Positions 13,701-27,691 of a DNA stretch of 28,867 nucleotides are shown piece by piece. Within the stretch, counting starts at the first letter, position 1. Each line of letters starts with the position of its first letter. The notes beneath the pieces were generated by a model. The model made no database searches. It was not told the origin of the DNA and saw nothing but the letters and a program-made list of their open reading frames with translations. The stretch comes from an uncultured Chitinophagaceae bacterium (GTDB taxonomy: Bacteria > Bacteroidota > Ignavibacteria > UBA10030 > UBA8401). The DNA lies in assembly GCA_964463935.1 (NCBI GenBank), contig CAYXEE010000001.1, positions 2,581 to 31,447 of the forward strand. The letters are read 5' to 3'. The translations under genes and the position numbers were made by a program.

Positions 13701-16700
13701 TAACGCTGCCGGAGGCAGAACTTGCCGCGCTGGTAAAGAGCGTTACGGTTCCGCCGGCGCCGGTTTTATTAAATGCCGTAACAATACTATTGGTATCTAT
13801 CTTTTGCGCGCCATTGGAATACAATGCAACATTATTGCTGATGAATGTTACGCTGCCTGTTGTATTCACAGTAAGATTCGTAAATGTGTTGCTGCTGATA
13901 TTTTGCGATACTACAGCCGCCGCGTTGCTGATATAAGTATGCGCGCTTGAACCGGCAACGCTGTGAGCGATACCTTGAATGTTGTTTGATTGTATCGTTA
14001 ATGCGCACGAAGCGGCAGCCGTTGTAACATTAATACCTGTAAGCGCGCTTGCATTGGCTGCGCTGTAGGTAACAAATCCGCCGCTGCTGTTGCCAAGCTG
14101 ATTGTTGATAATATTCAGCGCGCTTGTTACAGCTCCCGTGCTGGAGATTCCTGTTACTGTTCCCGTTGTATTTGTCCGGGAATGACTTCTGATAATATTG
14201 CCGGCGATATTCGCTGTTGATACTGCGGCGGAGTTTGATATACCTGTCAATGCGCCCGTGCCGGTATTAACAGCCGATAGAATATTGTTCGCAGTTATGG
14301 TAAGCGTTCCGCTGCCGCCGCCGTTAACAATGCCGCTTACGACTGAAGCGCCTGTGCCGTACGCAGTAGCATTCTGAACGGTATTTGCTGTAATGGAAAT
14401 TGTTCCGGTTGCCGTATTGTTAATTCCGTTGAATGTGCATACGCCGGCGGTTGTAGAAACAGTTCCGATAGAGACAGCGTCAATAGTATTATTATCAATC
14501 GTAAAATTACCGGCGGCGCCGGATGTCAATATTCCGTTGAATGTGTATCCGTTCGTCGCTATTCCTGTTGTAATAACATTGGTAATTGTATTTCCCTGTA
14601 CCGTAACCGCGCCGGTTGAAGCAACCGCTATACCGTTGATTATAGGAATTGTACTTCCCGAAGCCGACAAGCGCGATATTGTGTTGCCGGTAACATTCAC
14701 TACCGTTCCTGCCGTTACATTGATACCTGCAACCGATGCCGTTGCAATTGACAGCGAAGATGAAAGAGAATCTATCAGATTTCCATTGATAGTAACTGTG
14801 GGAGATATATTTGCGCTTGCCAATCCAATAACTAATCCGCCTGTTCCCGTCGATATTATTGTATCTATCGTATTGCTGTTCACCGTTAGCGCGCTTGCCG
14901 TGCCGCTGGCGCCAATATTTAATGCGGTAACCGCCGCTTGTCCGGTAATTTTTGTAATGATATTATTGGAAACCGTTGATGTTCCTCCAAAACCATTAAT
15001 GGTCATACCGGTAATTGCTGCGCCGCCGGTTGTCCAGTTCCTGAAAATATTTCCTGTAACTGTCTGGGTCGGATTGCCCGCGCCGGAGGCACTCCATCCG
15101 GTTATTATCGTTGCTCCTGTTGCCGTAACGTTTGAAAAATTATTGTTTCGGTGATTGATAACAGAGCCCGCCGGCGATACTGCGGCGGTAGTAAAGAATG
15201 TTATCGTCCCTCCCGCTGTTCCTTTGGTAAATGAGCCGGCTATGCTGTTGGTATCTATTTTTTGTGTTCCGTTTGAAAAGAGAGCAACGCTGTTGCTGAT
15301 GAATGTTACGCTTCCGCTTGTATTAACATTCAAATTTGTAAATGTATTACTGCTGATATTCTGCGAACGCGTAACGGCGGCGTTGTTGATATACGTATGC
15401 GCGTTTGTTCCTGCTATTGAATAGGCGATGCCTCTAATGTCGTTCGATTGAATGGTTAATGCCGATTGCGCGCTTCCTCCGGTATTGGTAATTCCAATCA
15501 ACGCGCTGGAAATTGCCGCGCTGTAAGCAACCAATCCATCGCTGCTATTACCAAGCTGGTTGTTAATAATGTTCACCGCCGATGTTACGCCGCCGGAGTT
15601 TGAAATACCGGTTACAGCGCCTGTTGCCGCTGTGCGCGTGTGACTTCGCAGTACGTTGCTGTTAATGTTCAGCGTATCTACTGCCGCCGTGTTGGATATT
15701 CCGGTGAACGCTCCTGTGCTCGGAAGCGCTGCTGAGATAATATTATTGCTGTTGATGTTGAGCGTTGATGCTATGGCAGAATTGGATATGCCGGTAAAAG
15801 CTCCGGTTCCTGTGTTTGTTCCCGAAATAATACTATTGCTTGTAAGAGCAACTGTGCCGTTCCCTCCTGTATTGGCGATACCATTGAAGACCGATGCTGC
15901 CGCGCCATACGCAGTTGCATTCTGTACGGTGTTGCCGGTAATCGAAATTGTTCCTGTTGCTATATTGGTGATACCGTTGAACGAGCAGACGCCGGTTGTT
16001 GTTGACGGCGTTCCTATGGCAATCGCATTCGCCGATGATGCGCTTCCTATCATATTGGATGCAATAGTAACATTCCCCAATGTTCCGGCGGTGTAGATAC
16101 CATAGAACGTATATCCGATTGCCGCTCCGCCACCAGCGCTGATTGAACGAATGGTATCGTTCTGAATAGAAACCGTTCCCGCGCTGGTTGAATATATTCC
16201 GGTGATTACTCCCGCGGTTGTTGTTGATGTTATGGAAACCGAATCTACTCCCGGTGTTCCTCCTATGGTATTGCCGGAGGTTGTTCCGATATTAACGTTG
16301 CCTGCCAGCGCCGATATTCCTGAGAATATTCCCGGCAGAGCTCCGGCGCTTGTGGTTGATAAACTAATTCCGGCGATGATGTTTCCTTGTACGCTTGTCG
16401 CCGATGCTGTTCCTACCGTAAGTTCTATCGCTCTGAATATAGCGGCAGCCGCTCCGGCATACAAGGTAACTCCCGTTCCCGATGAATTTGCATATCCGAT
16501 AATATTATTGCTTATAGCGTAGTTTACGCCCGATGCGGTGATAATATTAATTGCGTGATGCGTAGCTGCGCCGCTTGCTGTTCTAACTGCGCTCTGGAAA
16601 AATTTATTCCCGGTAATCGTCCACGCCGAGCTGTTTGACGCTATTAAAATTCCTTTTGATGCCGCCGCTGCGCCGAAATAATCTTGTATGTTGTTGTTGC

Positions 16701-17325
16701 TGATTGTGATTGCGCTGTTGTCCACCGCCGACGATGTTCCTGCTGAATATATTGCGTTGTAGGGAAGGTTGATGCCTGATGATGTTATTGTGCAACCAGT
16801 AATTACGTTGTTATCATTGCCGCTTGTACTTCCTGTGGAAAATAAAATTGTCCCCGATGTCGTGCTTATGCTCGATCCCTTGATCGTACAGTCCTGAATC
16901 GTGTTGTTTGTTGCATCGTTAATAAATCGTATCGTGCTTGCCGCCGCCGTCGCTGATGTGTTCTCGAAGGTTAATCCGTTCGAACCGTCTATCATCACAT
17001 TATCGGCTCCATTAAGTCTTATCAACGCCCCCGTTATCGCTCCGCTAATCGTCCACGATGATGTTGATGAAATTATCAATGATGTCCACGAACTAACGGA
17101 GGGCTGATTCAGAACCGCAGAATCGATTTCCGTTGTAGACGCAGTAATGCTAATCGCGATAGTGTTTCCTGCTTGCGCAGAATTCAAATTCAATGCATCA
17201 AATGCGGCTTTCAACGTTCCATACGTGCCGTTTGCTCCTGTTGATCCCGTAACAGTTACTTGACCGTACGCTGATGCCGCAATGACATAAACAAAATAAA
17301 ATATTTTTTTCAGTCGGTTATACAT
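1792..17325 (-). CDS. Giant (5177 aa) secreted adhesin-like surface protein with parallel beta-helix modules, Ig-like repeats and C-terminal beta-solenoid repeats
   Basis: Uninterrupted 15.5-kb ORF with signal peptide MYNRLKKIFYFVYVIAASAYG|Q and T/G/S/N-rich xIxxNxI beta-helix repeats. The DFDGDAR...PDIGADEF module end occurs twice, and about 9 repeats of the type T(V/I)(D/E)(Y/F)NG..AQTI...Y.NL..S.SGTKT lie in the C-terminal half. Confidence 0.9.
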   Translation of the reverse strand: MYNRLKKIFYFVYVIAASAYGQVTVTGSTGANGTYGTLKAAFDALNLNSAQAGNTIAISITASTTEIDSAVLNQPSVSSWTSLIISSTSSWTISGAITGALIRLNGADNVMIDGSNGLTFENTSATAAASTIRFINDATNNTIQDCTIKGSSISTTSGTILFSTGSTSGNDNNVITGCTITSSGINLPYNAIYSAGTSSAVDNSAITISNNNIQDYFGAAAASKGILIASNSSAWTITGNKFFQSAVRTASGAATHHAINIITASGVNYAISNNIIGYANSSGTGVTLYAGAAAAIFRAIELTVGTASATSVQGNIIAGISLSTTSAGALPGIFSGISALAGNVNIGTTSGNTIGGTPGVDSVSITSTTTAGVITGIYSTSAGTVSIQNDTIRSISAGGGAAIGYTFYGIYTAGTLGNVTIASNMIGSASSANAIAIGTPSTTTGVCSFNGITNIATGTISITGNTVQNATAYGAAASVFNGIANTGGNGTVALTSNSIISGTNTGTGAFTGISNSAIASTLNINSNNIISAALPSTGAFTGISNTAAVDTLNINSNVLRSHTRTAATGAVTGISNSGGVTSAVNIINNQLGNSSDGLVAYSAAISSALIGITNTGGSAQSALTIQSNDIRGIAYSIAGTNAHTYINNAAVTRSQNISSNTFTNLNVNTSGSVTFISNSVALFSNGTQKIDTNSIAGSFTKGTAGGTITFFTTAAVSPAGSVINHRNNNFSNVTATGATIITGWSASGAGNPTQTVTGNIFRNWTTGGAAITGMTINGFGGTSTVSNNIITKITGQAAVTALNIGASGTASALTVNSNTIDTIISTGTGGLVIGLASANISPTVTINGNLIDSLSSSLSIATASVAGINVTAGTVVNVTGNTISRLSASGSTIPIINGIAVASTGAVTVQGNTITNVITTGIATNGYTFNGILTSGAAGNFTIDNNTIDAVSIGTVSTTAGVCTFNGINNTATGTISITANTVQNATAYGTGASVVSGIVNGGGSGTLTITANNILSAVNTGTGALTGISNSAAVSTANIAGNIIRSHSRTNTTGTVTGISSTGAVTSALNIINNQLGNSSGGFVTYSAANASALTGINVTTAAASCALTIQSNNIQGIAHSVAGSSAHTYISNAAAVVSQNISSNTFTNLTVNTTGSVTFISNNVALYSNGAQKIDTNSIVTAFNKTGAGGTVTLFTSAASSASGSVINHRSNNFSTITVTGAAIIAGWVSTDAGSATKSVSNNIFTNWTGGTGAITAMSLAGNNNATYNNSINTISGAATITGITSGAGNDNIYSNTIYGLTSTGGTTTTVNGITITAGTTKNVYQNTIYNLQGNTLTTGSVNGISVSGGTTTSVYQNTMYSFTANAVTTGLLNGIAVSAGTTNNAYRNKIYDLSTSSSAVTTGTVNGILVSGAVASMVTNVSNNIIGDLRATAASGTNLLRGISITATGATSNINAYYNSVHLNASSSGATFGSSGIFHAASAVSTTAALDLRNNIIVNTSTPAGAGLTVAYRRSAGTAGTLANYASASNNNLLYAGTPSASRLIYSDGTSSAQTMTAYNAGVFTAGTISPRDINSVTENPTWLSTTGYSPDFLHIDTGTLTQIESGGSAIASYTIDFDGDARSGSTPDIGADEFTGVVNSLVPPSITYTVLGNTSSTANRTFSAIITDGTGVNTTAGTKPRVWYKKSTNTNGLPGTNDNTTNGWKYVEASNSTSPFSFTIDHGLIFGGVTAGDVIQYFVVAQNTLPTPVVGINSGTFFGTPPSVALTSGAFPIGGTINSYTVLAGLSGTVEVGAGKPYTSLTGNSSQGLFFDINAKGLAGNLTAHITSDITESGTVSLNAISYDDNSTYTLTISPSGGASRTISGSAAAPLINLNGADNVIIDGLNTGGNSLTFENTSATAAASTIRFINDATNNTIQDCTIKGSSISTTSGTILFSTGSTSGNDNNVITGCTITSSGINLPYNAIYSAGTSSAVDNSAITISNNNIQDYFGAAAASKGILIASNSSAWTITGNKFFQSAVRTASGAATHHAINIITASGVNYAISNNIIGYANSSGTGVTLYAGAAAAIFRAIELTVGTASATSVQGNIIAGISLSTTSAGALPGIFSGISALAGNVNIGTTSGNTIGGTPGVDSVSITSTTTAGVITGIYSTSAGTVSIQNDTIRSISAGGGAAIGYTFYGIYTAGTLGNVTIASNMIGSASSANAIAIGTPSTTTGVCSFNGITNIATGTISITGNTVQNATAYGAAASVFNGIANTGGNGTVALTSNSIISGTNTGTGAFTGISNSAIASTLNINSNNIISAALPSTGAFTGISNTAAVDTLNINSNVLRSHTRTAATGAVTGISNSGGVTSAVNIINNQLGNSSDGLVAYSAAISSALIGITNTGGSAQSALTIQSNDIRGIAYSIAGTNAHTYINNAAVTRSQNISSNTFTNLNVNTSGSVTFISNSVALFSNGTQKIDTNSIAGSFTKGTAGGTITFFTTAAVSPAGSVINHRNNNFSNVTATGATIITGWSASGAGNPTQTVTGNIFRNWTTGGAAITGMTINGFGGTSTVSNNIITKITGQAAVTALNIGASGTASALTVNSNTIDTIISTGTGGLVIGLASANISPTVTINGNLIDSLSSSLSIATASVAGINVTAGTVVNVTGNTISRLSASGSTIPIINGIAVASTGAVTVQGNTITNVITTGIATNGYTFNGILTSGAAGNFTIDNNTIDAVSIGTVSTTAGVCTFNGINNTATGTISITANTVQNATAYGTGASVVSGIVNGGGSGTLTITANNILSAVNTGTGALTGISNSAAVSTANIAGNIIRSHSRTNTTGTVTGISSTGAVTSALNIINNQLGNSSGGFVTYSAANASALTGINVTTAAASCALTIQSNNIQGIAHSVAGSSAHTYISNAAAVVSQNISSNTFTNLTVNTTGSVTFISNNVALYSNGAQKIDTNSIVTAFNKTGAGGTVTLFTSAASSASGSVINHRSNNFSTITVTGAAIIAGWVSTDAGSATKSVSNNIFTNWTGGTGAITAMSLAGNNNATYNNSINTISGAATITGITSGAGNDNIYSNTIYGLTSTGGTTTTVNGITITAGTTKNVYQNTIYNLQGNTLTTGSVNGISVSGGTTTSVYQNTMYSFTANAVTTGLLNGIAVSAGTTNNAYRNKIYDLSTSSSAVTTGTVNGILVSGAVASMVTNVSNNIIGDLRATAASGTNLLRGISITATGATSNINAYYNSVHLNASSSGATFGSSGIFHAASAVSTTAALDLRNNIIVNTSTPAGAGLTVAYRRSAGTAGTLANYASASNNNLLYAGTPSASRLIYSDGTSSAQTMTAYNAGVFTAGTISPRDINSVTENPTWLSTTGYSPDFLHIDTGTLTQIESGGSAIASYTIDFDGDARSGSTPDIGADEFTGVGPSNYYSKSTGNLNLLSNWGTATDGNGTAPLNFTSNNKTYYIRNNAAPTIGAAWTVSGTSSKIVVGDGTNVCNFTIPSGFAVTGTIDVSNNATLTNQNNINPTLGILATGSTVNYNGSGNQTIAAKDYYTLTSSSSGNRTLDNSATIRVANTFTAGTNSYTVTGSTIEFNGTANQNLSAIVLNNMTVNNSFGVTLSGNVTVNGVLSFTSGKITTGANKISIGALGSISGSGGYVIGNLEKTISTSGSPLAVTFEIGDAAYYTPVNLIFASVSSSGTVIASTTGTDHPDLPNSSINPAVSAQRYWTLTNGGTVYSTIDATFNFNPADVDGGANPLAFIIARYSGSWSQPNIGNVLSTSTQALELTDLGDFQVGESSLSPNISLATGGGAISADNVGTGTWTSLTGPFYAEGANGDVQIGTIILNAPPGFIFDTTGIAPTVLITRISGSGDSTREINNVSSGTAVPITSITITQITFTVTASSSNGVRDSLTWQNIRVRPSAGSPLASGQITKSGTSVMAGVTNNVTNFGGLIEVAGAMSKVAVILPGTDFKIGIGANGSATAQTAGVEFVVDSLVATDQYSNITTSYSGAKNLTYSGPTGDTAYSSNPITFNAGVAVNISARLRKAESVSISVQEGNNFGSPTNLTINNAGYTHLQILVPNETATPGVGVGKTSFSTAQTAGVSFNVTVRSVDSCWNFVNSGSNLITLSTDNPYYTLGSGNLSSGTVLLSATLNKAVASTITASATGPSPNTSSSIPVNPDALDKLQVIVPGETADPGSPTGKTGTPSVQAATAPITFTVNAVDVNWNLVSATNTIQITSNDGTASLPSNADLVGGTKDFVISMNAAGSRTITATSIAGPAVTAGTSASITINSVTIAAAVNGNAISADDFGTGDWTALTGPYYEEATSANVGIGTIILYAPSGFEFDQGGITPTVLINGSGTASENINNESDGTSVSVIVSATQITFTVTSVSSNGVTNSLTWQDIRVRPTAGAPLASGNISKSGTSTLIGVTGGTNFGTLTQIAGAIDKLVITLPGQTFTSGSGNSGSPANQTAATPFTISSITATDQYLNTAPSYSGAKTFSYSGPAGAPSYTTNVSFTSGVSTTMLTTTLNVVETSTITVTDGGLYGNASSNLTILPLTTTWDGGGDGVNWNSANNWNPNGVPATHSNVELTGANTITINVAATAYNVVLNNASLALSITTGNSLTVTNNYIQSNGAVNTATTFPAVSGTTTISGGTVNYNASGAQTVSSQTYHHLSFSGSGTKQLAGIITVNGNLSVASGVTLNDAGFQITGNASNTVTLNASATLSLGGIGSGTSFPTNYISISLNPTSAVIYASDAAQTIKAANYGNVTSSSSGSRTLSSSGTIGIAGTFTKGSNSYTVTSSTVDYNGTSSQNISDLPSYNNLIISGAGTKTLSANASIIGDITISGGTLDLQTYTGNRNTLGGTFTIAALCTLRVGGTNGMPENYSTYAFDPASIVDFYGSNPTINGGTFNNLVVASGGAVTLGANVTITGNLTVTNGTLDLGSYTANRSALGGTASVSAGATLRIGGTNGLPANYSTYAFNPASTVEFYGTSQPIEAQSFGNLTINSSGTVTLANSGTIGISGTFSPNSGTYVTTGSTIDYNKAGAQTITKFNYNNLSLSGSGAKTFALDITRIAGTLSISDASADAITNLSTIEFNGTIAQTINPITYYNLEVSSSGTKTISGAVTVNNNVGIVSGATLLVDSGATLAVRNDIDNSGTLNIDGELTYAP
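1941..2086. repeat. Direct repeat near the 3' end of the giant gene, copy of 1-146
   Basis: Same alignment as 1-146. It encodes IAGTLSISDASADAITNLSTIEFNGTIAQTINPITYYNLEVSSSGTKT. Confidence 0.9.
7068..11640. repeat. Intragenic direct repeat copy B (4573 bp)
   Basis: Matches 12402-16974 at a constant offset of 5334. All opposite-strand shadow ORFs, which are sensitive to synonymous changes, translate identically in both copies. Boundaries are CTACGCCTGTAAA and GAAGGTTAA. Confidence 0.95.
12402..16974. repeat. Intragenic direct repeat copy A (4573 bp)
   Basis: As for copy B. The two copies are separated by a unique, in-frame 761-bp spacer (11641-12401). Confidence 0.95.
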
Positions 17326-18201: not shown

Positions 18202-18749
18202 TGGAAACAACATACGAAATTGTAACGCTCGGAAACGGCTGTTTTTGGTGCACAGAGGCAATTTTTCAACGGCTTGAAGGCGTAATAAAAGTAGAATCCG
18301 GTTATTCCGGCGGAACTGTTGCAAATCCAACGTATGAACAAGTTTGCTCCGGTACAACCGGACACGCAGAAGTTCTTCAAATAACATTCAATCCAAAAAT
18401 TATTTCGTTCAAAGAAATTCTTGATGTGTTCTGGAAAACTCACGATCCGACCACGTTAAATAGACAAGGAAACGATGTCGGCACACAGTATCGCTCGGCA
18501 ATTTTTTATCATTCAGAAAAACAAAAGAAAATTGCAGAAGAATACAAAAAAGAACTTGAAGCAAAGAAAATTTGGGACGATCCGATTGTTACGGAAATTA
18601 CGCCGTTCTTAAAATTTTATTCGGCTGAAAATTATCACCAAAATTACTATAATAGTAACCAATACCAGCCGTACTGTATGCTGGTGATAAATCCGAAACT
18701 GAAAAAATTTCAAAAAGAGTTTCAGAACAAGCTGAAAAAAGAAAAATGA
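18201..18749 (+). CDS. msrA: Peptide-methionine (S)-S-oxide reductase MsrA
   Basis: GCFWCTE active site plus [26 protein letters not shown] and AE.YHQNYY motifs. The ATG at 18201 has an AGGA SD; the longer ORF-track start at 18063 is unlikely. Confidence 0.97.
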
Positions 18750-18833
18750 CAAATATTTTTTTCTCCGTTGTTGAAAGAGCGAACAATCAAAAAAATTTTT
18801 TTTCTCTTTTGTTTTTTAAATATCCACATACGC

Positions 18834-18916
18834 GTCATACCCGCGAAAGCGGGTATCTCAACAATATATCTTCTAAAGAAAAACCAAGATTCCCGATAAA
18901 AACATTCGGGAAGGAC
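18834..18916. repeat. REP/RPE-like palindromic element (GTCAT(A/T)CCCGCGAAAGCGGG family)
   Basis: GTCATACCCGCGAAAGCGGGTATC ... AGATTCCCGATAAAAACATTCGGGAAGGAC forms two hairpins with GTC/GAC termini. A related copy lies at 27746-27793. Confidence 0.8.
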
Positions 18917-18919
18917 GCA

Positions 18920-19732
18920 GTGGATGGTTTAAAATTATTTTTTCATCAAAACAAATTTATCTATCGAACAATCATCTTTCTTTTCGCGTTTACCATCTTG
19001 CTTGCTTCTTCGGGGTGTTTTATTCTTCGTCCTGCCGCCGGAGCGAGTTACGACAAAGAACAAGTACAAAAGGCGCGCGAAGCAAAAATGATGGAAGTAA
19101 AACTGCAAGCCGCGCAACGGTTGCAAACACGGCTCGCCGATAACAAACCGATTGAAAATTCAGACTTCACTTTTTATTTCAATCAAGAATTATTTAATAA
19201 AGCCGCCGCGCAGTTGGACGGCACAATCGGCTGGCTCGATTCTCTCAATTCATATTTTATCCGCAGCATTCGCGTTACGCTGAACAACGGCTCTGCCGTT
19301 GCAACATTTAATCTTGCAGTGTTTAATCATCAGCATAATGTAAATGTGGATATGCTTATGGACTGCCTGTTAGATTTTTCAGTTGAAAACGGAAAACTGT
19401 ACGCGCGGTTCGAGCCATTTTCAATTTCTCCCGTTGTCAGCGCGTCCGGAGTTGCCGGAATATTGAACGACATTATTGCGGATATTATTGAACTAAAAAT
19501 TTCTGAGATGAGTCAGAAGTTTCCGCCGATAGAAATGCCGATTGATTTTGAAAACAAATTTCCAATTCCGCAAAATTCTCTTTCCGTTCGCAGCGGAATA
19601 AATATGGATATTTCCATTCCGGGCGCAACGCTTGCATACGGTTTGCAGGTAAAAGAAATTCTTATTTTTCACAATGCCGTAGTTGTTGGAATGAATCTGA
19701 CGAAAGCGAGCAAAGAGAGCGCAGAAAAATGA
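18920..19732 (+). CDS. Putative lipoprotein of unknown function (start GTG 18920; alternative ATG 18746)
   Basis: Hydrophobic stretch IIFLFAFTILLASSG|C with a lipobox. GGAAGG lies 5 nt before the GTG at 18920, and the ORF overlaps the next gene by ATGA. Confidence 0.75.
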   Translation: MDGLKLFFHQNKFIYRTIIFLFAFTILLASSGCFILRPAAGASYDKEQVQKAREAKMMEVKLQAAQRLQTRLADNKPIENSDFTFYFNQELFNKAAAQLDGTIGWLDSLNSYFIRSIRVTLNNGSAVATFNLAVFNHQHNVNVDMLMDCLLDFSVENGKLYARFEPFSISPVVSASGVAGILNDIIADIIELKISEMSQKFPPIEMPIDFENKFPIPQNSLSVRSGINMDISIPGATLAYGLQVKEILIFHNAVVVGMNLTKASKESAEK

Positions 19733-20607
19733 AAAATAATTTCTTTGCGCCCTTTGCGGTTAAGAACGCTTTTATTTTTCTTCTTGCATTATTTTTCATC
19801 GGCTGCGGCTATTCCGCGCCGTCGCTTTTTCCTCCGACCGAACTAAGCGTTCAAAAAATTGCGGAAATGAAACCGCAGTTGGATTCCCTTGATGCCGCAA
19901 TAAACGCGCGCGCAAAAGTTCTTCCCGCAAATTACAACAGCACAACGCGCATCACCATTGCAAGCATTAACCGCTTACTCGACCTGTTTGCACAACAGCG
20001 CGCGGACGATATTAGCATTGCATTTCTTCCTACACAACCGCTGTGGAAAGAAGAAAAAAATATTCTCGGAATTAAATACACAAATCTGGCAAACATAGAC
20101 AGCGGCGCATTTTCCATTGATATAAAAAAATTCCGCTTCAAATGGGGAATGAATAATATGCTGAATGCCGAAGTGGAGATTGAAGGAAAAGGAACAATTG
20201 CCGTTTCCGGAACGTACGCGGGAATTTCCGCTTCTGCATCGCCGCAATTGCATTGCTATCTTAACGAAAATATTCTCTTTTCCATCGCGGCAGATTCGGA
20301 ATCAATAATTTTAAAACCGCAGACAAAAACATTAACGCTGAAAGCAAAAGCGACAATGAAATTATTGCAATGGGAAATTCCGATCTACAAAGAAGTTCCT
20401 CTTCAGGCGACGGATATTATTCAGCCGATGAAACTTCCCGCCGCGCTCCGCTCGGATATTGCAATTCCGCTTCCGGCAAAAGAGTTCGGCTCCAGCAAAG
20501 TGGAATTTGTCCGCCGCACGATTGAATTTAGCAATGCAAAAGTTTCCGCAGTTAATAATGTATTGGGAATTCAAGGAAATATTTCGCTAAAAGTTCCGGC
20601 GCAGTAA
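19729..20607 (+). CDS. Putative lipoprotein of unknown function
   Basis: 292-aa ORF with AFIFLLALFFIG|C lipobox-like signal, a long beta-strand-rich body, and translational coupling to the previous gene. Confidence 0.8.
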   Translation: MKNNFFAPFAVKNAFIFLLALFFIGCGYSAPSLFPPTELSVQKIAEMKPQLDSLDAAINARAKVLPANYNSTTRITIASINRLLDLFAQQRADDISIAFLPTQPLWKEEKNILGIKYTNLANIDSGAFSIDIKKFRFKWGMNNMLNAEVEIEGKGTIAVSGTYAGISASASPQLHCYLNENILFSIAADSESIILKPQTKTLTLKAKATMKLLQWEIPIYKEVPLQATDIIQPMKLPAALRSDIAIPLPAKEFGSSKVEFVRRTIEFSNAKVSAVNNVLGIQGNISLKVPAQ

Positions 20608-20613
20608 GCGAAC

Positions 20614-20729
20614 GCCACGAATTCACAAATAGTATTATTTGTTTTTCTGTAGAGTTGGGCGCTCATCCATATAGAACGGACGGACGTATCTCCGTGTCTA
20701 TGTTATTCAATTCGTGTATTTGTGGCTTC
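20614..20729. repeat. Nested REP-like palindromes between convergent genes (possible bidirectional terminator)
   Basis: Outer imperfect arms GCCACGAATTCACAAAT / ATTCGTGTATTTGTGGC enclose a GTAGAG...CGTGTCTA(T) element. Confidence 0.65.
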
Positions 20730-20748: not shown

Positions 20749-21225
20749 TTAATTACGGAGTTTGTTGCTTCGCTTTCTTAGTTTTTTCCTTTGTTCGCTA
20801 TTAAATTTTTCTTTAATCAATTCAATAAAATTTACAGAGGGAAGTAAAAATTTACCGTGGAGCGAAGTACCGGTTGCCTGCCCTACAATACCACGAGCAA
20901 TAGAGTACGTCATAGCCAAGCCGTTTGGAACTAATAAGTTGGGAATCTCTTTTTCGGGAAACAATGAATCAAATTCCAAAAACGACTCCATTTTGATATG
21001 AATGCGATATTCAGATTTTCTAAAATGTTCATCCTTCGGGTTTACAATTACATCTAATTCAATCTTAAACTTGGACTCGTTTTCTTTTCTAAAAAATTTA
21101 AAATTTATACCCATATTTGAAGAAGCAGGTTTACCCGCTTCGGGTGTAAAATTAGGATTTGCTTCAACATTAAGTAAAAGCAAAAAGTAATCTCTAAGCT
21201 GCAATTGCGCCATTACGTTGCTCAT
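20749..21225 (-). CDS. SecB-like chaperone of a toxin-antitoxin-chaperone (TAC) system
   Basis: N-terminal LQLRDYFLLLLNVEANPNF and C-terminal PNGLAMTYSIARGIVGQATG...KFLLPSVNF match the SecB signature (N..A..Y...R..I...T......LP..NF). A GAGGA SD precedes the ATG at 21225, and the gene overlaps the antitoxin 3' end. Confidence 0.82.
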   Translation of the reverse strand: MSNVMAQLQLRDYFLLLLNVEANPNFTPEAGKPASSNMGINFKFFRKENESKFKIELDVIVNPKDEHFRKSEYRIHIKMESFLEFDSLFPEKEIPNLLVPNGLAMTYSIARGIVGQATGTSLHGKFLLPSVNFIELIKEKFNSEQRKKLRKRSNKLRN

Positions 21226-21586
21226 AAGCATCCTCTAAATTCAACTGTTGTGAGTATCCGGTGGTGTCAAGTTTTTTAGTATTGAAGGTGATATGCCTCT
21301 TCATTTCATATTGTTTTGGAAGAAGAACAAAATCAATAGAACATTCTAGCGCGTGAGCTATTTGAACAATCTTTTTCAGCGTTAGATTTTCGCCGCCATT
21401 GAGAAGTTTAGTAATATAGGCGTTTGAACACCCCAATTTTTGTGCAAGCTGCGATCGCGTAATATTTTTCTCTTTCATTTGCTTATGGATTTGTTCCGTT
21501 ACATCAATAATAATACCTTCGGATATGTATTCAATATCGTCTTTGAATTGTTCAACGAGCGATTCAAATTGTTTTTTCAAGTCCAT
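21194..21586 (-). CDS. Xre/HigA-like HTH antitoxin with C-terminal chaperone-addiction (ChAD)-like extension
   Basis: HTH MKEKNITRSQLAQKLGCSNAYITKLLNGGENLTLKKIVQIAHALE followed by a ~44-aa tail ending YEQRNGAIAA*. It starts 2 bp after the toxin stop. Confidence 0.85.
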   Translation of the reverse strand: MDLKKQFESLVEQFKDDIEYISEGIIIDVTEQIHKQMKEKNITRSQLAQKLGCSNAYITKLLNGGENLTLKKIVQIAHALECSIDFVLLPKQYEMKRHITFNTKKLDTTGYSQQLNLEDAYEQRNGAIAA

Positions 21587-21588
21587 AA

Positions 21589-21951
21589 TTATCTCACAAT
21601 TTCATTATAGATTGCGGTTGCTTTTTTTAACTCCGAGCGGGGTATTCGGTTTTGTTTTTTTGTAAAACCATGCGTAAGAACAACAGATCGTTTGGCGAAG
21701 TTGGGAAGATAAAAACATAATAATCGTGTTTGATATGACTTAAAAGCAAAAATCGGTTTTTCTTCTAAACGGAATTTTTCTATGTTCTTTATTTCTCCAC
21801 GCGCTGCAAATTCTTCCAATAATCTCACAATTTTTGCCCCATCGGCAGCAGTAAGCGATTGTATAAAGCTAAATGCCAACGGTTCTCCCCGCAGATTTTT
21901 ATATACAAAAATATCGGCTTCTTTCCCTTCTATGAGTAATTCTACGGGCAT
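21589..21951 (-). CDS. RelE/HigB (Gp49-like) family toxin
   Basis: 120 aa with IFAFKSYQTRLLCFY...VVLTHGFTKKQNRIPRSELKKA, the typical Gp49/RelE C-terminal motif. It lies upstream of an HTH antitoxin in higBA order. Confidence 0.85.
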   Translation of the reverse strand: MPVELLIEGKEADIFVYKNLRGEPLAFSFIQSLTAADGAKIVRLLEEFAARGEIKNIEKFRLEEKPIFAFKSYQTRLLCFYLPNFAKRSVVLTHGFTKKQNRIPRSELKKATAIYNEIVR

Positions 21952-21953
21952 AT

Positions 21954-21982
21954 AATTTAACCTATAAGTTAAACTTTGTCAA
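21954..21982 (-). promoter_or_regulatory. Sigma70-type promoter with overlapping palindromic operator for the TAC operon
   Basis: On the minus strand TTGACA (21982-21977) - 17 nt - TAAATT (21959-21954). The palindrome TTTAACcTATAaGTTAAA (21956-21973) overlaps the spacer and -10. Confidence 0.7.
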
Positions 21983-21990
21983 GTGTTTTT

Positions 21991-24900
21991 TCACCCTTTC
22001 AACACTCGTTCTACCAACGCATCTATCTCTTTCATTTCTTCTGCTAATGCTTTGCGGATTTGCAGCCGCGCGGTGCCAAGACGCACGCCTTCTAATTCTT
22101 CTTTTCCTGTAACTATTTTGCCGACTTTTTTTGTGCACGCTTCGCCGAGTTTTGCCAATTCAATATGCTGTCTGTTTTTTGAATCATATTGTGGAAAGGC
22201 TATCTCAAGAATAGTTTTGCTTATATGACGTGGTCCAAACAAACCTCGTGCTTGAAAATCTTTTATTAACCTATTGGCAAAACCACAGTTTAAAAAAGAA
22301 ACTAAATAATTTGCTTCTTTAAAACTGTTTACTGCAATCCAATATGCCGTGTAATCTACAATAAATTCCAAATCAAAATCTTCTCTATTAATTATAACAG
22401 CATTTGCATCTTTTGCCGATGCGGTATAAAGAACTAAATATTTGGCGTTTATATTTTGCTGCGTTAATTTATTTTGCCAATTTAAATAATCATACAAATT
22501 TATTTTTTCTTCTTTATTCTTTTCTGTTTTGTGTTTTTCCCAAAGAAGTTCTGCTTTCTTAAACCATTCTGCAGTTTCCGTGTTTCCGCGTTTGAATATT
22601 TCTCCGGAATTTAAGATTGAAATAACTTTTTTATCTTGAACGGTATTTATTGTAATGGGTAAAAGAACCAATAATGGATTGACCAAAGCAAAAGGAACTA
22701 TGTTTTTTGATAAAGCGGTTCTAAATAAATATTTTGTATTTATTCTTCCGCTTATTGTTAAATCTTTCCACGGCGCTTTTGCTTCCGGCAGCGCAATAGT
22801 TTTACACTGAACAATTCTAGCGGTAAAGATTTTTGGCAGTTCTTGTTCCGGCGTAACAAAATAAAATGTGCGCGGCACAATTGTTGCGCCCTGCCTAAAC
22901 TTGCTGGCATAAAAACTTTCCTGATTTTTACCGGAAAGCAAATGCGTTGTTAATGCAGAGCGGGCGTTATTACCCTGCGAAAGTTTTGAATAAAACCACG
23001 ATGTTTTTGTTTGTGTTATAGAATGTCTTGCTTCTTCCCAATGCGTGTTAGTGCTGCGAAGTTTTCCTGAAAAAGAAAATCCTTTAATACCGGCGGCGGA
23101 AATTTCTCGTTTGCTTCGCAGACTAATATGTCCCGCATCAGCAAACAAAACGCACGAAGGGACGCGGAACAGCGGCGCAACACCGACTAAATCCCACACA
23201 GAAGTAAGTTTAATTTTTTTTACTCTGCCGGAGCGCGTGTTGTCGTGCTGATCTGCCGTTAAAAATGCGCGCGGCAAAACAAATGCTAATTTCCCGGTCG
23301 GTTTAAGAAAATAATTGCACGAGTGAGCGAAAAAAACAGCGGCAATTTCCAAATGCGGCATATTTGCTTTGGAGCGCGGCGTTACTTCGTACGAATCCGA
23401 AAGTTTCAACAGTTCATTTTGGTATGCGGCATCGGTAATATCGGAATAGGTAAGCCACGGCGGATTTCCGATAACAAAATCGAATCGTTGCTTTAACAAA
23501 ATCGGCTTGTACAGATTTTGTAAAATAAATTTCCAAATGGTGTCGCGTTGTTCTAATTTTGCCTGCCTCAGCGCGGCGTAGATTCTGTAAAAATTGTAAT
23601 AATGAGATTTATTATCGCTGGTAATAATATTGCGCAATTGCTTTTCAAATTTTTGTTCATTTATTTGCTGCGCTTCAAATTCGGCTATGGAATTGCACAA
23701 CTCTACGGAATTATCAAAGTCCGACGGATTTTCAAAAATGCTGTTTTCCATCGGATACTGTTTTTTGTCAATCGTAATTTCAAATGTTTGTCCGAATAAT
23801 TCCGCAGAGCCAAGCGGAAGCCGGAGCGAATTGGCAAGATAGACATTGAGCGCGGCGGGCTTTTTCAATTTTTGAATTGATTTTCCGAGCGCGATAAGAA
23901 TTGTTGTTTTTGCAACCTGCACGGAAAGCGGATGAATATCAATGCCGACAACCTGCTCAAGTATTGTGTTTACGGAAAGACGGGGAAATTCTTTTTGCAA
24001 TTTTACAATTGCCGCACGTAAAAACGAACCGCTTCCGCACGCAGGGTCAAGAATGCTGCTTTCTTCGGTAAAACGCAATTCGTCAACAATTCTTTCGCAC
24101 AGCCAATCGGGTGTGTAATATTCGCCGAGTGAATGCCGCGTTTCCAAATCAATAAGTTCTTGATATACGCCTTTAAGAATATCTTCTTTCACATTCTGAA
24201 AATCAAATTCCGTAATTCGCTGCGTAATTTTTTTGAATACCGGAAGCAATGAAGTAATGTGTTTTTTTTGTCCAATCCACGAATAAAAATCATTATCTAC
24301 AAAACGCGTAACGTGATATTTGTTAAAGATTGAACCGTTTAAAATGCCTTCAAGTTCATTGCTGTCTATGTAATCATCATTGCTGATAATTTTGTACGCT
24401 ATGATTTTTGCAAACGCGCTTAAATAGGTATGAACAAAAAATACTTCTTGAGAATCATCAAATTTTCCGTATGCAATGGATAAAAATTTCTTCCACTGTT
24501 CATACGCTGTAAAAACAGTAGAATCCTGTGTAATATCAGGGAGATATTTATTCATTGCATTCATCGTATTCAAAAACACCTGCGATGTTTCTCCGAAAGC
24601 AAGCGTAATATTTTCTAATGTTGCGGGCTGAATGTGCGTTTTGAATAAATAGCGGTCAAGAAAATAGAAGAAATCTGAAAATTTATTTTTTGTAAGGGTA
24701 AATGTTTCCGTGTGTTTCAGCTCTATTGCGGTTACAACAAGTTTTTCTTTTTGATGAATAAGCGTTTCGTAGTTCGGCGCAAAAACTTCCCAGTGAATTC
24801 CATCGGTTGCTATTAACACAAAATTGTAATCGTCGCCGGATTTCCAATTTCCCGCAGCATATTCGGCAAGCTGTTCTTTTGCATGGTCGCCGGTTTTATG

Positions 24901-25151
24901 TAAATCTTTTTCCCACTCAATAATTACATTGTTATATTGCGAATCGGCAGAGCCGGTTTTTATTCGTTCTTTCAGCGGAATGTTGAAATATAATTATTAT
25001 CATTTATTTCTATTTTATCAATAATACCTTTTGCCGTTGAATCAGCATCAAAAAGCCGAACCAGCAGCGTTTTCAGCAGTTCTTTTTTCGCAAGTTCGGA
25101 ATTTGCATGAACAATTTTGGTAAAATAAATTTCTATTTCGTGAAGATTCAT
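21991..25151 (-). pseudogene. Type IIG (Eco57I-like, REase-MTase fusion) restriction-modification gene split by a -1 frameshift near 24972-24993
   Basis: MTase motifs GEYYTPDW, LDPACGSGSFL and GNPPW (N6-adenine). The main frame is open upstream of the called GTG 24819 to 24993 and reads FNIPLKERIKTGSADSQYNNVIIEWEKDL...QLAEY...ATDGIHW, a PD-(D/E)xK nuclease. The N-terminus MNLHEIEIYF...IIDKIE (ATG 25151, stop 24972) is in another frame. Confidence 0.75.
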
Positions 25152-25327: not shown

Positions 25328-25354
25328 TTATTCAATTCGTGTATTCGTGGCTTC
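25328..25354. repeat. Direct repeat of 20703-20729 (26/27 identical), with related flanks
   Basis: TTATTCAATTCGTGTATT(C/T)GTGGCTTC, followed in both places by AACAAA(A/T)TTTA(A/G)GAATTT. Confidence 0.85.
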
Positions 25355-25612: not shown

Positions 25613-26920
25613 ATGCTCAGCGAACAATTAAAACAAAACGGTGTTGTCGGCGCGGGTGGCGCAGGATTTCCCACATACGTAAAAGCAAATTCCAAAGCGG
25701 AATTTGTTCTTGCCAACGGCGCGGAATGTGAGCCGCTTATCCACAAAGATGTGGAATTGATGCTTCATTTTCCCGAACAAATCGTCAGCGGAATGGCGAT
25801 GATGATGAAGGCAACGGGCGCGAGCGGCGGAAAATTCGGCATTAAAGAAAAACACAGCGAAGCGATTGATGTGCTTGCGCCCTTCGTAAAAAAATCGGGA
25901 ATAGAATTTTCTCTGCTCGGCGATTTTTATCCTTCCGGCGATGAATATGAATTAGTGTACGCCGCCACGGGAAGATTGATTCCTCCCGCGGGTCTTCCGC
26001 TTCACGTCGGCTGTGTGGTGAACAATGTTGAAACGCTTTATAACATTCATCAAGCGGCAAACAATATTCCTGTAACGGAAAAATTTATTTCCATTGCGGG
26101 CGCGGTTGCATCGCCAAAATCGTTCCGCGTGCCGATTGGAATTTCGTTCCGCGAAATACTTGCGGCTGCCGGCGGCGCTACGGCGGATGAATTTGGAATT
26201 TTCATCAGCGGATTGATGATGGGAAAACTTTCCTTCGATCTTGATGATGTTGTAACAAAAACTACCGCGGGACTTATTATTCTTCCCGCATCGCATTTTC
26301 TTGTGTCGAGAAAAAGTCAGCCTCAAAAAAATATGAACCGCATCGGAAAATCTGCGTGCGACCAATGCAGTTACTGTACGGAATTTTGTCCGCGCTACTT
26401 GCTCGGATATGAAGTTCAGCCGCACAAAGTAATGCGCTCGCTCGGCTTTACGCAGATGGGAACGCAGCATTGGAATCAATGGGCGGAATTGTGCTGCGCG
26501 TGCGGATTGTGTACGCTCTATGCGTGTCCCGAAGATTTGTTTCCGAAAGAATCATGCGACCAGGCAAAAGTAGAAATGCGGAACGAAGGAATTAAATTTG
26601 TTCAGCAGAAAGAAGTGCGCGTGCATCCGATGAAAGAATCGCGCAGAGTTCCGCAGTCGCAATTGCGCAAGCGATTGAATGTAGAAGACTGCGAAACGCC
26701 GTTTGATGCAAGGGAGTTTCATCCCGAATCTGTTATGATAAAATTATCGCAGCATGTCGGTAAAGCGGCGTCGCCTGTTGTTTCAGTAAACGATCGCGTG
26801 CAAAAAGGAACATTGATTGCATCGGTTTCTGAAAAAAATTTGGGCGTAAATATTCATTCCAGCATTTCGGGAACAGTTGCTCAGATCACCGATTCGTTTA
26901 TAGAAATTAAAAGCGTTTGA
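25613..26920 (+). CDS. pduS: PduS/RnfC-like flavin- and 4Fe-4S-containing reductase (microcompartment-associated)
   Basis: GVVGAGGAGFPT..K and NGAECEP FMN-binding motifs, an SLBB region, two ferredoxin motifs (CDQCSYCTEFCP; CCACGLCTLYACP), and a C-terminal barrel-sandwich domain (QHVG..A.PVV.V.D.V.KG...HSSISG) as in PduS. It is adjacent to a BMC-T gene. Confidence 0.82.
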   Translation: MLSEQLKQNGVVGAGGAGFPTYVKANSKAEFVLANGAECEPLIHKDVELMLHFPEQIVSGMAMMMKATGASGGKFGIKEKHSEAIDVLAPFVKKSGIEFSLLGDFYPSGDEYELVYAATGRLIPPAGLPLHVGCVVNNVETLYNIHQAANNIPVTEKFISIAGAVASPKSFRVPIGISFREILAAAGGATADEFGIFISGLMMGKLSFDLDDVVTKTTAGLIILPASHFLVSRKSQPQKNMNRIGKSACDQCSYCTEFCPRYLLGYEVQPHKVMRSLGFTQMGTQHWNQWAELCCACGLCTLYACPEDLFPKESCDQAKVEMRNEGIKFVQQKEVRVHPMKESRRVPQSQLRKRLNVEDCETPFDAREFHPESVMIKLSQHVGKAASPVVSVNDRVQKGTLIASVSEKNLGVNIHSSISGTVAQITDSFIEIKSV

Positions 26921-26939
26921 TAGCAGAGAAATAATTTTA

Positions 26940-27124
26940 CCTCGCTACAAAGTTCAGTTTAGTCCAGACCTAACAGGTTTTTAAAACCTGTTAGGTCTTT
27001 TAAGGAAAAATATTATCACCTCGTTACAAAGCTCTGCTTTGTAACGAATACAATATGTTCCCAAACAGAGTTTGGGAACAAGAAAAAAAAATACCTCGCA
27101 GGTTTCAAAAACCTGTGAGGTATT
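26940..27124. repeat. Cluster of four REP-like hairpins
   Basis: AGACCTAACAGGTTTT-T-AAAACCTGTTAGGTCT (26966-26998); TCGTTACAAAGC-TCT-GCTTTGTAACGA (27021-27047); TGTTCCCAAAC-AGA-GTTTGGGAACA (27056-27080); AATACCTCGCAGGTTT-CAA-AAACCTGTGAGGTATT (27090-27124). Confidence 0.9.
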
Positions 27125-27139
27125 TACAAGGAAAACATT

Positions 27140-27691
27140 ATGGCAAAAAATTCTATCGGACTAATTGAACTCAGCAGCGTGGCTGCCGGCTACCAAGTAA
27201 CAGATGCAATGCTGAAAGCGGCTGATACGGAATTGATTCTTTCCCGCTCTATCTGTTCGGGAAAATATATGGTAATGGTGCGCGGCGATGTTTCCGCCGT
27301 TGAAGCAAGCGTTGAAGCGGGAAAAGCGCTTGGAGATTTTTCTCTTATAGATTCATTCGTTATTCCCAATGTGCACGAATCAATTTTTCCTGCTATCGGC
27401 GGAACATCAAAAGTGGAAGTGCTGGAAGCGCTGGGAATAATTGAAGCATTTTCCGTTGCATCGTTGATTGAAGGAGCGGACGCCGCCGCAAAATCCGCAA
27501 ATGTGCAATTGATTGAAGTGCGTCTTGCAATGGCGCTCGGCGGAAAAGCATTTGTTACGCTCACCGGCGATGTTGCCGCCGTGCAAAATGCTGTCGATGT
27601 CGGCGCAAAACTTATCGGCAAAAAAGGATTGCTGGTAAACTTTGTTGTAATTCCGCGCCCGCGCCCGGAATTATTGAGCGATATGATTTAA
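27140..27691 (+). CDS. pduT: Tandem-domain bacterial microcompartment shell protein (BMC-T, PduT-like)
   Basis: Two BMC domains (SIGLIELSSVAAGYQVTDAMLKAA...GDVSAVEASV; ALGIIEAFSVASLIEGADAAAKSA...GDVAAVQNAV...VIPRP). The SICSGKY Cys corresponds to the PduT pore Fe-S ligand position. An AAGGA SD is present. Confidence 0.9.
   Translation: MAKNSIGLIELSSVAAGYQVTDAMLKAADTELILSRSICSGKYMVMVRGDVSAVEASVEAGKALGDFSLIDSFVIPNVHESIFPAIGGTSKVEVLEALGIIEAFSVASLIEGADAAAKSANVQLIEVRLAMALGGKAFVTLTGDVAAVQNAVDVGAKLIGKKGLLVNFVVIPRPRPELLSDMI

Follow-up and report, generated by a model that had tools for sequence, protein, structure and literature searches.

A probable HigBAC-type toxin-antitoxin-chaperone cassette downstream of a restriction-modification gene in an uncultured Chitinophagaceae bacterium

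Toxin-antitoxin-chaperone (TAC) systems were described in 2011-2013 and are known from seven phyla, in which they are sparse and spread by horizontal transfer (PMC3581621). In the TAC of Mycobacterium tuberculosis, a Val-Ala at the end of the chaperone-addiction (ChAD) tail of the antitoxin HigA1 serves as a ClpX degron, and this degron overlaps the region bound by the chaperone (PMC8165232). Phage sensing by a HigBA-based TAC, the HigBAC system of Escherichia coli NT1F31, was published in 2024: the lambda protein gpV titrates the chaperone HigC, and this titration is the phage trigger (Mets et al., bioRxiv 10.1101/2024.02.24.581848). In this system spaced aromatic residues of the antitoxin HigA bind HigC, and ClpXP is not needed for HigA inactivation; CmdA, the antitoxin of the E. 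coli CmdTAC system, ends in an Ala-Ala that is recognised by ClpX (bioRxiv 10.1101/2024.02.24.581848). The subject of the present analysis is a three-gene locus that resembles these systems and is contained within a 28,867-nucleotide stretch of DNA, called here the window, from an uncultured Chitinophagaceae bacterium (GTDB lineage Bacteria; Bacteroidota; Ignavibacteria; UBA10030; UBA8401; assembly GCA_964463935.1, contig CAYXEE010000001.1, positions 2,581 to 31,447 of the forward strand). To our knowledge, the NT1F31 HigBAC is the only HigBA-based TAC for which a phage trigger has been demonstrated.

The three genes very probably form an intact TAC cassette of the HigBAC type. They are encoded on the minus strand in the order toxin, antitoxin, SecB-like chaperone:

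21589-21951, minus strand: toxin gene, from the listing of open reading frames (ORFs); 120 aa, Gp49/HigB-type protein of the RelE fold, predicted mRNA interferase
21194-21586 (stop codon included), minus strand: antitoxin gene; 130 aa, HigA-type protein of the XRE/HTH_3 (helix-turn-helix, HTH) family
20749-21225, minus strand: chaperone gene; 158 aa, SecB-like TAC chaperone with a basic C-terminal tail

Besides sharing an orientation, the genes are closely linked: the toxin stop codon is followed after 2 nt by the antitoxin start, and between the antitoxin and chaperone genes there is a 32-nt overlap. Taken as the longest ORF, the chaperone gene would extend over 20749-21231; an ATG at 21225, with an AGAGGA motif 5 nt upstream, yields the 158-aa product that is given in the protein database (P0001). 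A preliminary description of this DNA had proposed a complete TAC made of three coupled minus-strand genes (a RelE/Gp49 toxin, an Xre antitoxin with an extra C-terminal tail, and a SecB-like chaperone) in a genome of the Fibrobacteres-Chlorobi-Bacteroidetes (FCB) type. The ORFs are found at the positions claimed, and the presence of a HigBA-type pair together with a SecB-like chaperone is backed by domains, folds, synteny of the triad, and a conserved operator. The host assignment also agrees, in that the genome shares its GTDB family with a metagenome-assembled genome (MAG) titled uncultured Chitinophagaceae.

The toxin matches the Pfam family Gp49 with 27.6 bits, above the cut-off, and a profile of its family (alignment A2) matches Streptococcus pneumoniae HigB (PDB 6af3) at 2.2e-12. 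A structure predicted by AlphaFold2 (AF2) has a predicted local distance difference test score (pLDDT) of 95, and its best fold matches are the S. pneumoniae HigB entries 6af3 and 6af4 (template modelling score, TM, 0.74-0.78), followed by the M. tuberculosis TAC toxin HigB1 (7nbu, 7awk; TM 0.66) and then by RelE, YoeB, and HigB2. Residues G52, K71, R76, T93, H94, and K98 are invariant in the family alignment. In a hidden Markov model alignment, K71, R76, and K98 coincide with R68, R73, and K92 of S. pneumoniae HigB, which are equivalent to the catalytic R68, R77, and K95 of HigB1 and to K54, R61, and R81 of RelE (PMC9098466). Since the residues at the catalytic positions are invariant, the toxin looks catalytically competent; by analogy with its homologues, it would cleave mRNA in a ribosome-dependent manner. 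The RelE/Gp49 assignment made from the sequence has thus held up on domain, fold, and catalytic residues alike, and with the toxin gene placed ahead of that of an HTH antitoxin the pair is of the HigBA type.

The antitoxin has an HTH_3 domain at residues 33-86 (4.7e-12 in Pfam) and matches the PADLOC model PDC-M64B (7e-12). After the HTH comes the extra tail that the preliminary description had noted, about 40 aa long:

21197-21322, minus strand: ChAD-like C-terminal tail of the antitoxin, residues 89-130, ending in Ala-Ala

In an alignment of 23 antitoxins (A3), the tail that follows the HTH is 35-44 aa long and contains 2-7 aromatic residues (4 in the present protein). Nineteen of the 23 end in Ala-Ala, two in Ala-Val, and one in Ile-Ala; the remaining antitoxin has a divergent end and is possibly frameshifted. 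At the sequence level the tail qualifies as a ChAD-like extension, to which the chaperone would bind. The Ala-Ala end constitutes a ClpX-type degron through which the protein may be degraded by ClpXP, and both clpX and clpP are present in the genome. (A tmRNA, whose SsrA tag could be compared with the antitoxin C-terminus, was not found by ARAGORN in this 86.7%-complete MAG.) The antitoxin was also considered as a controller (C) protein of a restriction-modification (R-M) system. C proteins are its best profile matches in the PDB (about 1e-4), with HipB and HigA so close behind that this identity was not adopted.

The third protein is less easily recognised by sequence. It scores 20.6 bits against the NCBIfam SecB model, for which the cut-off is 143, and it matches two PADLOC chaperone models, PD-T4-9_C of CmdTAC (1.6e-7) and PDC-M64C (3.6e-4). 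Because a search of the PDB with the single sequence gave no match, and a profile search gave only a marginal match to SecB (0.033), structure prediction was needed. The AF2 model, which was built from an alignment of 32 homologues (A1), has a pLDDT of 88.5 and a predicted TM-score (pTM) of 0.80. When it is compared with the PDB using Foldseek, the best match is 5mtw, the M. tuberculosis chaperone Rv1957 in complex with a HigA1 ChAD peptide (1.7e-7); the Haemophilus influenzae and E. coli SecB entries 1fx3, 1ozb, and 1qyn come next, and all of the top 18 matches are SecB or SecB-TA. The preliminary description had made its case depend on a SecB fold of the 158-aa protein. The model, with its match to 5mtw and then to canonical SecB, confirms this fold, for which the support from sequence is weak. 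At its C-terminus (window 20749-20815) the chaperone has a strongly basic tail that is rich in Lys and Arg, and this character is conserved across the family.

The arrangement of the genes is conserved as well. Contigs that encode homologues, together with a scan of species-representative genomes, provided 13 independent related loci (14 when the window is counted), which are titled Chitinophagaceae, Chitinophagales, Bacteroidota, Ignavibacteriota, Melioribacter, Desulfuromonas, Nitrospirota, Dissulfurispiraceae, and Thermoanaerobaculia. In all 13 the order is toxin, antitoxin, chaperone, with the antitoxin always in the middle, and in all 13 the antitoxin and chaperone genes overlap, by 11-50 nt. 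(The toxin gene of locus L005 is present, although it was missed in gene calling.) An exhaustive profile search with the chaperone returned 443 clusters at 50% identity with E <= 1e-10 and 2341 with E <= 1e-3. The distant members P0100 and P0150 also lie in Gp49-HTH-SecB triads; the P0066 chaperone follows an HTH gene on a short contig, and the 1-kb contig of P0200 holds no complete upstream gene. Given so many clusters, and distant members that lie in triads, the chaperone family is sizeable. In one of the loci, and probably in a second, the toxin gene is disrupted. At L012 (Melioribacter, 3258-3623) a single-base frameshift interrupts it after about codon 12, next to intact antitoxin and chaperone genes, and at L016 (Dissulfurispiraceae, 3263-3632) the N-terminus of the toxin looks disrupted too. 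A toxin that decays while its antitoxin and chaperone persist would give something like the 'AC' systems, without a toxin, that Sala et al. described.

Upstream of the toxin gene lies a candidate control region:

21977-21982, minus strand: TTGACA, a -35-like hexamer found by a consensus scan
21957-21972, strandless: 16-bp palindromic operator candidate, TTAACTTATAGGTTAA, conserved across related loci

The promoter-like site extends from 21982 to 21954 and consists of TTGACA, a 17-nt spacer, and TAAATT. The palindrome overlaps this -10-like TAAATT (21954-21959) and ends 5 nt before the toxin ATG. TTAACTTATAGGTTAA has its sole match in the window at this position, with 0.15 matches expected by chance. 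As one copy located 18-30 nt upstream of the toxin start, the palindrome TTAACYTWWAGGTTAA is seen in 12 of the 13 related loci and also in the distant loci L031 and L032; a TTGACA or TTGACT precedes it at a fixed distance of 3-4 nt in 11 of the 13. It is this conservation across related loci that makes the palindrome more than a chance match, and the antitoxin would be the protein that binds it. At the most divergent locus, L018 (Thermoanaerobaculia, 3040-3075), a different perfect palindrome, GTTGAC...GTCAAC, occupies the same position, which suggests the pattern expected if operator and repressor evolve together. (The L018 antitoxin also has a much longer tail, with 184 aa for the whole protein.) L032 has a full promoter, TTGACA-17-TATCAT, upstream of its palindrome. 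Inspection of the upstream sequence in the window by eye revealed no evident TAnnTTTG motif of the Bacteroidetes type.

These features can be joined in a mechanism that follows the known TACs. The toxin would act as a RelE-fold ribonuclease of the HigB/Gp49 type that cleaves mRNA on the ribosome. The HTH antitoxin would neutralise it and, as a dimer, would repress the operon at the palindrome beside the toxin start codon. The aromatic-rich tail of about 40 aa would render the antitoxin unstable and would expose its C-terminal Ala-Ala degron to ClpXP, unless the SecB-like chaperone binds and shields the tail. Once the chaperone is titrated away, the antitoxin would be lost, either by ClpXP degradation or by aggregation, and the toxin would stop translation. 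The likeliest titrant would be a phage protein made in abundance, comparable to lambda gpV, which titrates HigC in E. coli. Phage sensing is a plausible function, and the most likely one, on the basis of the analogy with E. coli HigBAC and CmdTAC, the defence neighbourhood, and the matches to PADLOC candidate models.

The distribution of the chaperone bears on two other explanations. It was found in 2 of 61 related genomes, this one and G002 (the Chitinophagaceae MAG behind locus L009, since the coordinates coincide), and in 1 of the 36 other genomes of the same family that were searched; the cassette is accessory and patchily distributed. It is extremely improbable that the third gene is a housekeeping SecB which happens to stand beside an ordinary HigBA pair. 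JGI and NCBI do label some homologues 'preprotein translocase subunit SecB', but the protein misses both the Pfam and the NCBIfam thresholds, at every one of the 14 loci its gene overlaps that of the antitoxin, and it was not found in 59 of the 60 relatives searched; the housekeeping identity was rejected. An explanation that was first proposed for the M. tuberculosis TAC is that of a stress-responsive regulator of growth (PMC8165232), in which export stress or aggregation would occupy the chaperone and the toxin would slow growth transiently. In keeping with this, the closest structural match of the chaperone is the M. tuberculosis one, and a search of the genome found no second SecB-like gene, so that the chaperone could double as a general chaperone. 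Such a role is nevertheless unlikely here, since a gene seen in so few genomes of its own family fits core physiology poorly and since its neighbours are often R-M genes.

An R-M gene is indeed what adjoins the cassette in the window, and R-M genes lie directly upstream, on the same strand, in 6 of the 14 loci:

Window, 21991-25151, minus strand: type IIG R-M gene directly upstream of the cassette, with a frameshift at about 24972-24993
L001, upstream: type I HsdR
L003, upstream: type ISP enzyme
L005, upstream: Eco57I-family enzyme
L007, upstream: HsdR plus RadC
L009, upstream: type IIG enzyme

Other upstream neighbours with a defence context are a UvrD-type helicase (L014) and a DUF499 protein (L017); among the 14 loci, an upstream neighbour was assigned in all but L015 and L018. 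The R-M gene that the preliminary description had placed next to the operon is real and belongs to the type IIG family (5e-65 for the PADLOC model REase_MTase_IIG), but it is frameshifted near its 5' end. The ORF that has a start covers 21991-24819 (GTG at 24819), and its frame is open to 24993 with no start codon; a second frame, 24975-25151, supplies a Met N-terminus and overlaps the first by 22 nt. The frameshift falls near codon 55-60, and the GTG-started ORF does not include the N-terminal part that matches the type IIG profile; a reading carried across the break extends the match to positions 49-716 of the profile. The break could reflect a real pseudogene or phase variant, or an assembly error in the MAG.

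The R-M and TAC genes of the window are bracketed exactly by a direct repeat:

20703-20729, plus strand: left copy of a 27-nt direct repeat, 26 of 27 nt identical to the right copy
25328-25354, plus strand: right copy of the 27-nt direct repeat, 26 of 27 nt identical to the left copy

The 2.86-Mb assembly contains no further copy, and by eye a weaker similarity continues on both sides of the repeat. It may be an insertion scar or an att-like duplication; there is no integrase inside the bracketed block. No empty site for the block was found in two relatives: in G001, which is of the same genus, the left flank is present and the right one absent, in G002 the right flank lies elsewhere, and neither genome has the 27-mer. 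Between the type IIG enzymes of the window and of L009, similarity is confined to methyltransferase motifs, and the two are not orthologous. Consequently, the association between R-M genes and the TAC has arisen repeatedly, and the idea that the two travel as one block was ruled out. It is proposed that the cassette is an accessory, horizontally moving unit that has landed repeatedly just downstream of R-M genes.

An addiction or stabilisation module is, together with the stress-responsive role, the main rival to phage sensing. Without sensing phage, the cassette would keep itself and the R-M genes in place through post-segregational killing, and the adjacency of the two would mean a shared 'genomic sink' and linked transfer. 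The patchy distribution, which looks like the product of horizontal transfer, the repeat that brackets R-M and TAC together, and the lack of relationship among the upstream R-M genes all speak for it, as does the finding that TACs lie in alien regions and have addictive properties (Sala et al., PMC3581621). On the other hand, phage defence is known for two E. coli TACs, of which one is HigBA-based, and addiction alone leaves the conserved dedicated chaperone and the degron unexplained. As the sole function, addiction is somewhat unlikely; it and phage sensing are not mutually exclusive.

The recurrent placement could also have a meaning of its own. The TAC lies immediately 3' of same-strand R-M genes that are unrelated to one another: a type I HsdR, a type ISP enzyme, and type IIG enzymes of two unrelated kinds. 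This might point to functional wiring and not to mere co-location, a reading that is decidedly doubtful. If it were so, the cassette would be a back-up that fires on phage anti-restriction proteins or on abundant late proteins, as PrrC does behind EcoprrI. It would be a self-contained unit that brings along a promoter and an operator, and perhaps a toxin mRNA without a leader, and works across phyla.

Several observations weigh against an intact cassette that works by the phage-sensing mechanism set out above. By sequence, the chaperone scores 19 bits against Pfam SecB, which is sub-threshold (the cut-off is 26 bits), and at E <= 0.1 the toxin matches none of the PADLOC models, PDC-M64A included. 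Because E. coli HigA is inactivated without ClpXP, the degron step is not universal among TACs. Four of the 14 loci (L011, L012, L013, and L016) have non-defence neighbours, and a tblastn search of plasmid and phage collections with the chaperone found no homologue. The frameshifted R-M gene means that the island may be decaying. Finally, the -10-like TAAATT of the window ends 2 nt before the toxin ATG, which is too close for an ordinary σ70 start. This ATG is the real start, because the N-terminus of the toxin is conserved and folds in the model with high confidence; the toxin transcript would then be leaderless with an unusual start site, or it would be made from further upstream. (With the hexamer in this position, leaderless transcription of the standard σ70 geometry does not suit the window.) Of the promoter and operator that had been described for the operon, the TTGACA/TAAATT hexamers and the conserved palindrome are there, but the spacing of the hexamers to the ATG does not fit σ70.

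A further rival is that the cassette is an inactive remnant, in which the ORFs are intact and the system, like the frameshifted R-M gene, no longer works. In addition to that frameshift, the disrupted toxin gene of L012, and probably that of L016, would agree with such a fate. It is very unlikely for the window, where all three ORFs are full-length and the family consensus is kept at the catalytic positions, at the Ala-Ala end, and in the operator; moreover, frameshifts in a fragmented MAG may be assembly errors. Taken as a whole, the favoured reading, an intact HigBAC-type TAC cassette that operates by the proposed mechanism, is on balance probable.

The remaining features of the window lie outside the cassette. 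On its downstream side there is a possible terminator:

20680-20695, strand not assigned: GC-rich hairpin, a terminator-like site between the convergent chaperone gene and lipoprotein operon

This hairpin may act as a two-way terminator. At 18746-20607, downstream of msrA, two consecutive ORFs of 328 and 292 aa without a Pfam match converge on the TAC. On the other side, 25613-27691 encodes an RnfC/PduS-like flavoprotein (Complex1_51K, Fer4, RnfC_N) followed by a shell protein with tandem bacterial microcompartment (BMC) domains, which indicates a microcompartment locus adjoining the defence islet. Further away, a minus-strand ORF of 5177 aa (1792-17325) has a long internal duplication, visible as shadow ORFs that reappear 5334 nt further on (7458-7865 and 12792-13199 are one such pair). 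Probable explanations are a surface protein or adhesin built of repeats and an assembly collapse or duplication.

How, then, does the locus compare with the systems that have been described? With the M. tuberculosis TAC (HigB1 Rv1955, HigA1 Rv1956, SecB-TA Rv1957) it shares the gene order toxin, antitoxin, chaperone, the HigB1 toxin fold (TM 0.66), and a chaperone whose best match is 5mtw. Both antitoxins have a short ChAD-type tail of about 40-45 aa, which ends in Val-Ala in HigA1 and in Ala-Ala here. However, identity in the structural alignments is just 13-15%, and the toxin profile missed HigB1 by sequence. The host is a member of the Bacteroidota, the cassette lies behind an R-M gene and not in a large island rich in toxin-antitoxin systems, and the chaperone here has a basic C-terminal tail.

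The E. coli NT1F31 HigBAC of Mets et al. (bioRxiv 10.1101/2024.02.24.581848) likewise combines a HigB-type toxin and a SecB-like chaperone with an HTH antitoxin whose ChAD is rich in aromatic residues, and it sits in a variable defence locus; the likeness is drawn from its description, not from its sequence. Its ChAD is 96 aa long with four spaced aromatic motifs, and inactivation is independent of ClpXP, whereas the tail here is about 40 aa with an Ala-Ala degron. In addition, the E. coli system is on a prophage, while no phage genes flank the present cassette. E. coli CmdTAC (PD-T4-9) provides the sequence model that the chaperone matches best (1.6e-7), and its antitoxin CmdA also ends in Ala-Ala. 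The toxin CmdT, however, is an mRNA ADP-ribosyltransferase, in contrast to the Gp49/HigB fold found here, and toxin and antitoxin are unrelated to those of the cassette; with only the chaperone model matching, identity with CmdTAC was rejected. Among solved toxins, that of S. pneumoniae HigBA (6af3, 6af4) comes nearest in sequence profile (2.2e-12) as well as in fold (TM up to 0.78), and the catalytic positions align, but this is a two-gene system without a chaperone or a ChAD tail.

The PADLOC candidate PDC-M64 is a partial match: its antitoxin (B) and chaperone (C) models match and no A model matches the toxin. PADLOC PDC candidates are obtained by guilt-by-embedding (Payne et al., bioRxiv 10.1101/2024.01.29.577857): the genes from which they derive lie inside loci of BREX, DISARM, and type I R-M systems. 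The adjacency to an R-M gene seen here mirrors that rationale. A search of the literature found no published description of PDC-M64 itself.

With TAC systems, phage sensing by HigBAC, and a partly matching PADLOC candidate already known, the locus is not a new category of system. What it adds to the HigBAC-type TACs is a well-supported Bacteroidota/FCB clade with useful details of its own: a short ChAD with a near-universal Ala-Ala end, a conserved 16-bp operator, and a recurrent place behind R-M genes. It offers a compact system in which to ask whether the chaperone-shielding and ClpXP-degron steps of the M. tuberculosis TAC are valid outside the Actinobacteria, and what TAC chaperones sense in environmental bacteria.

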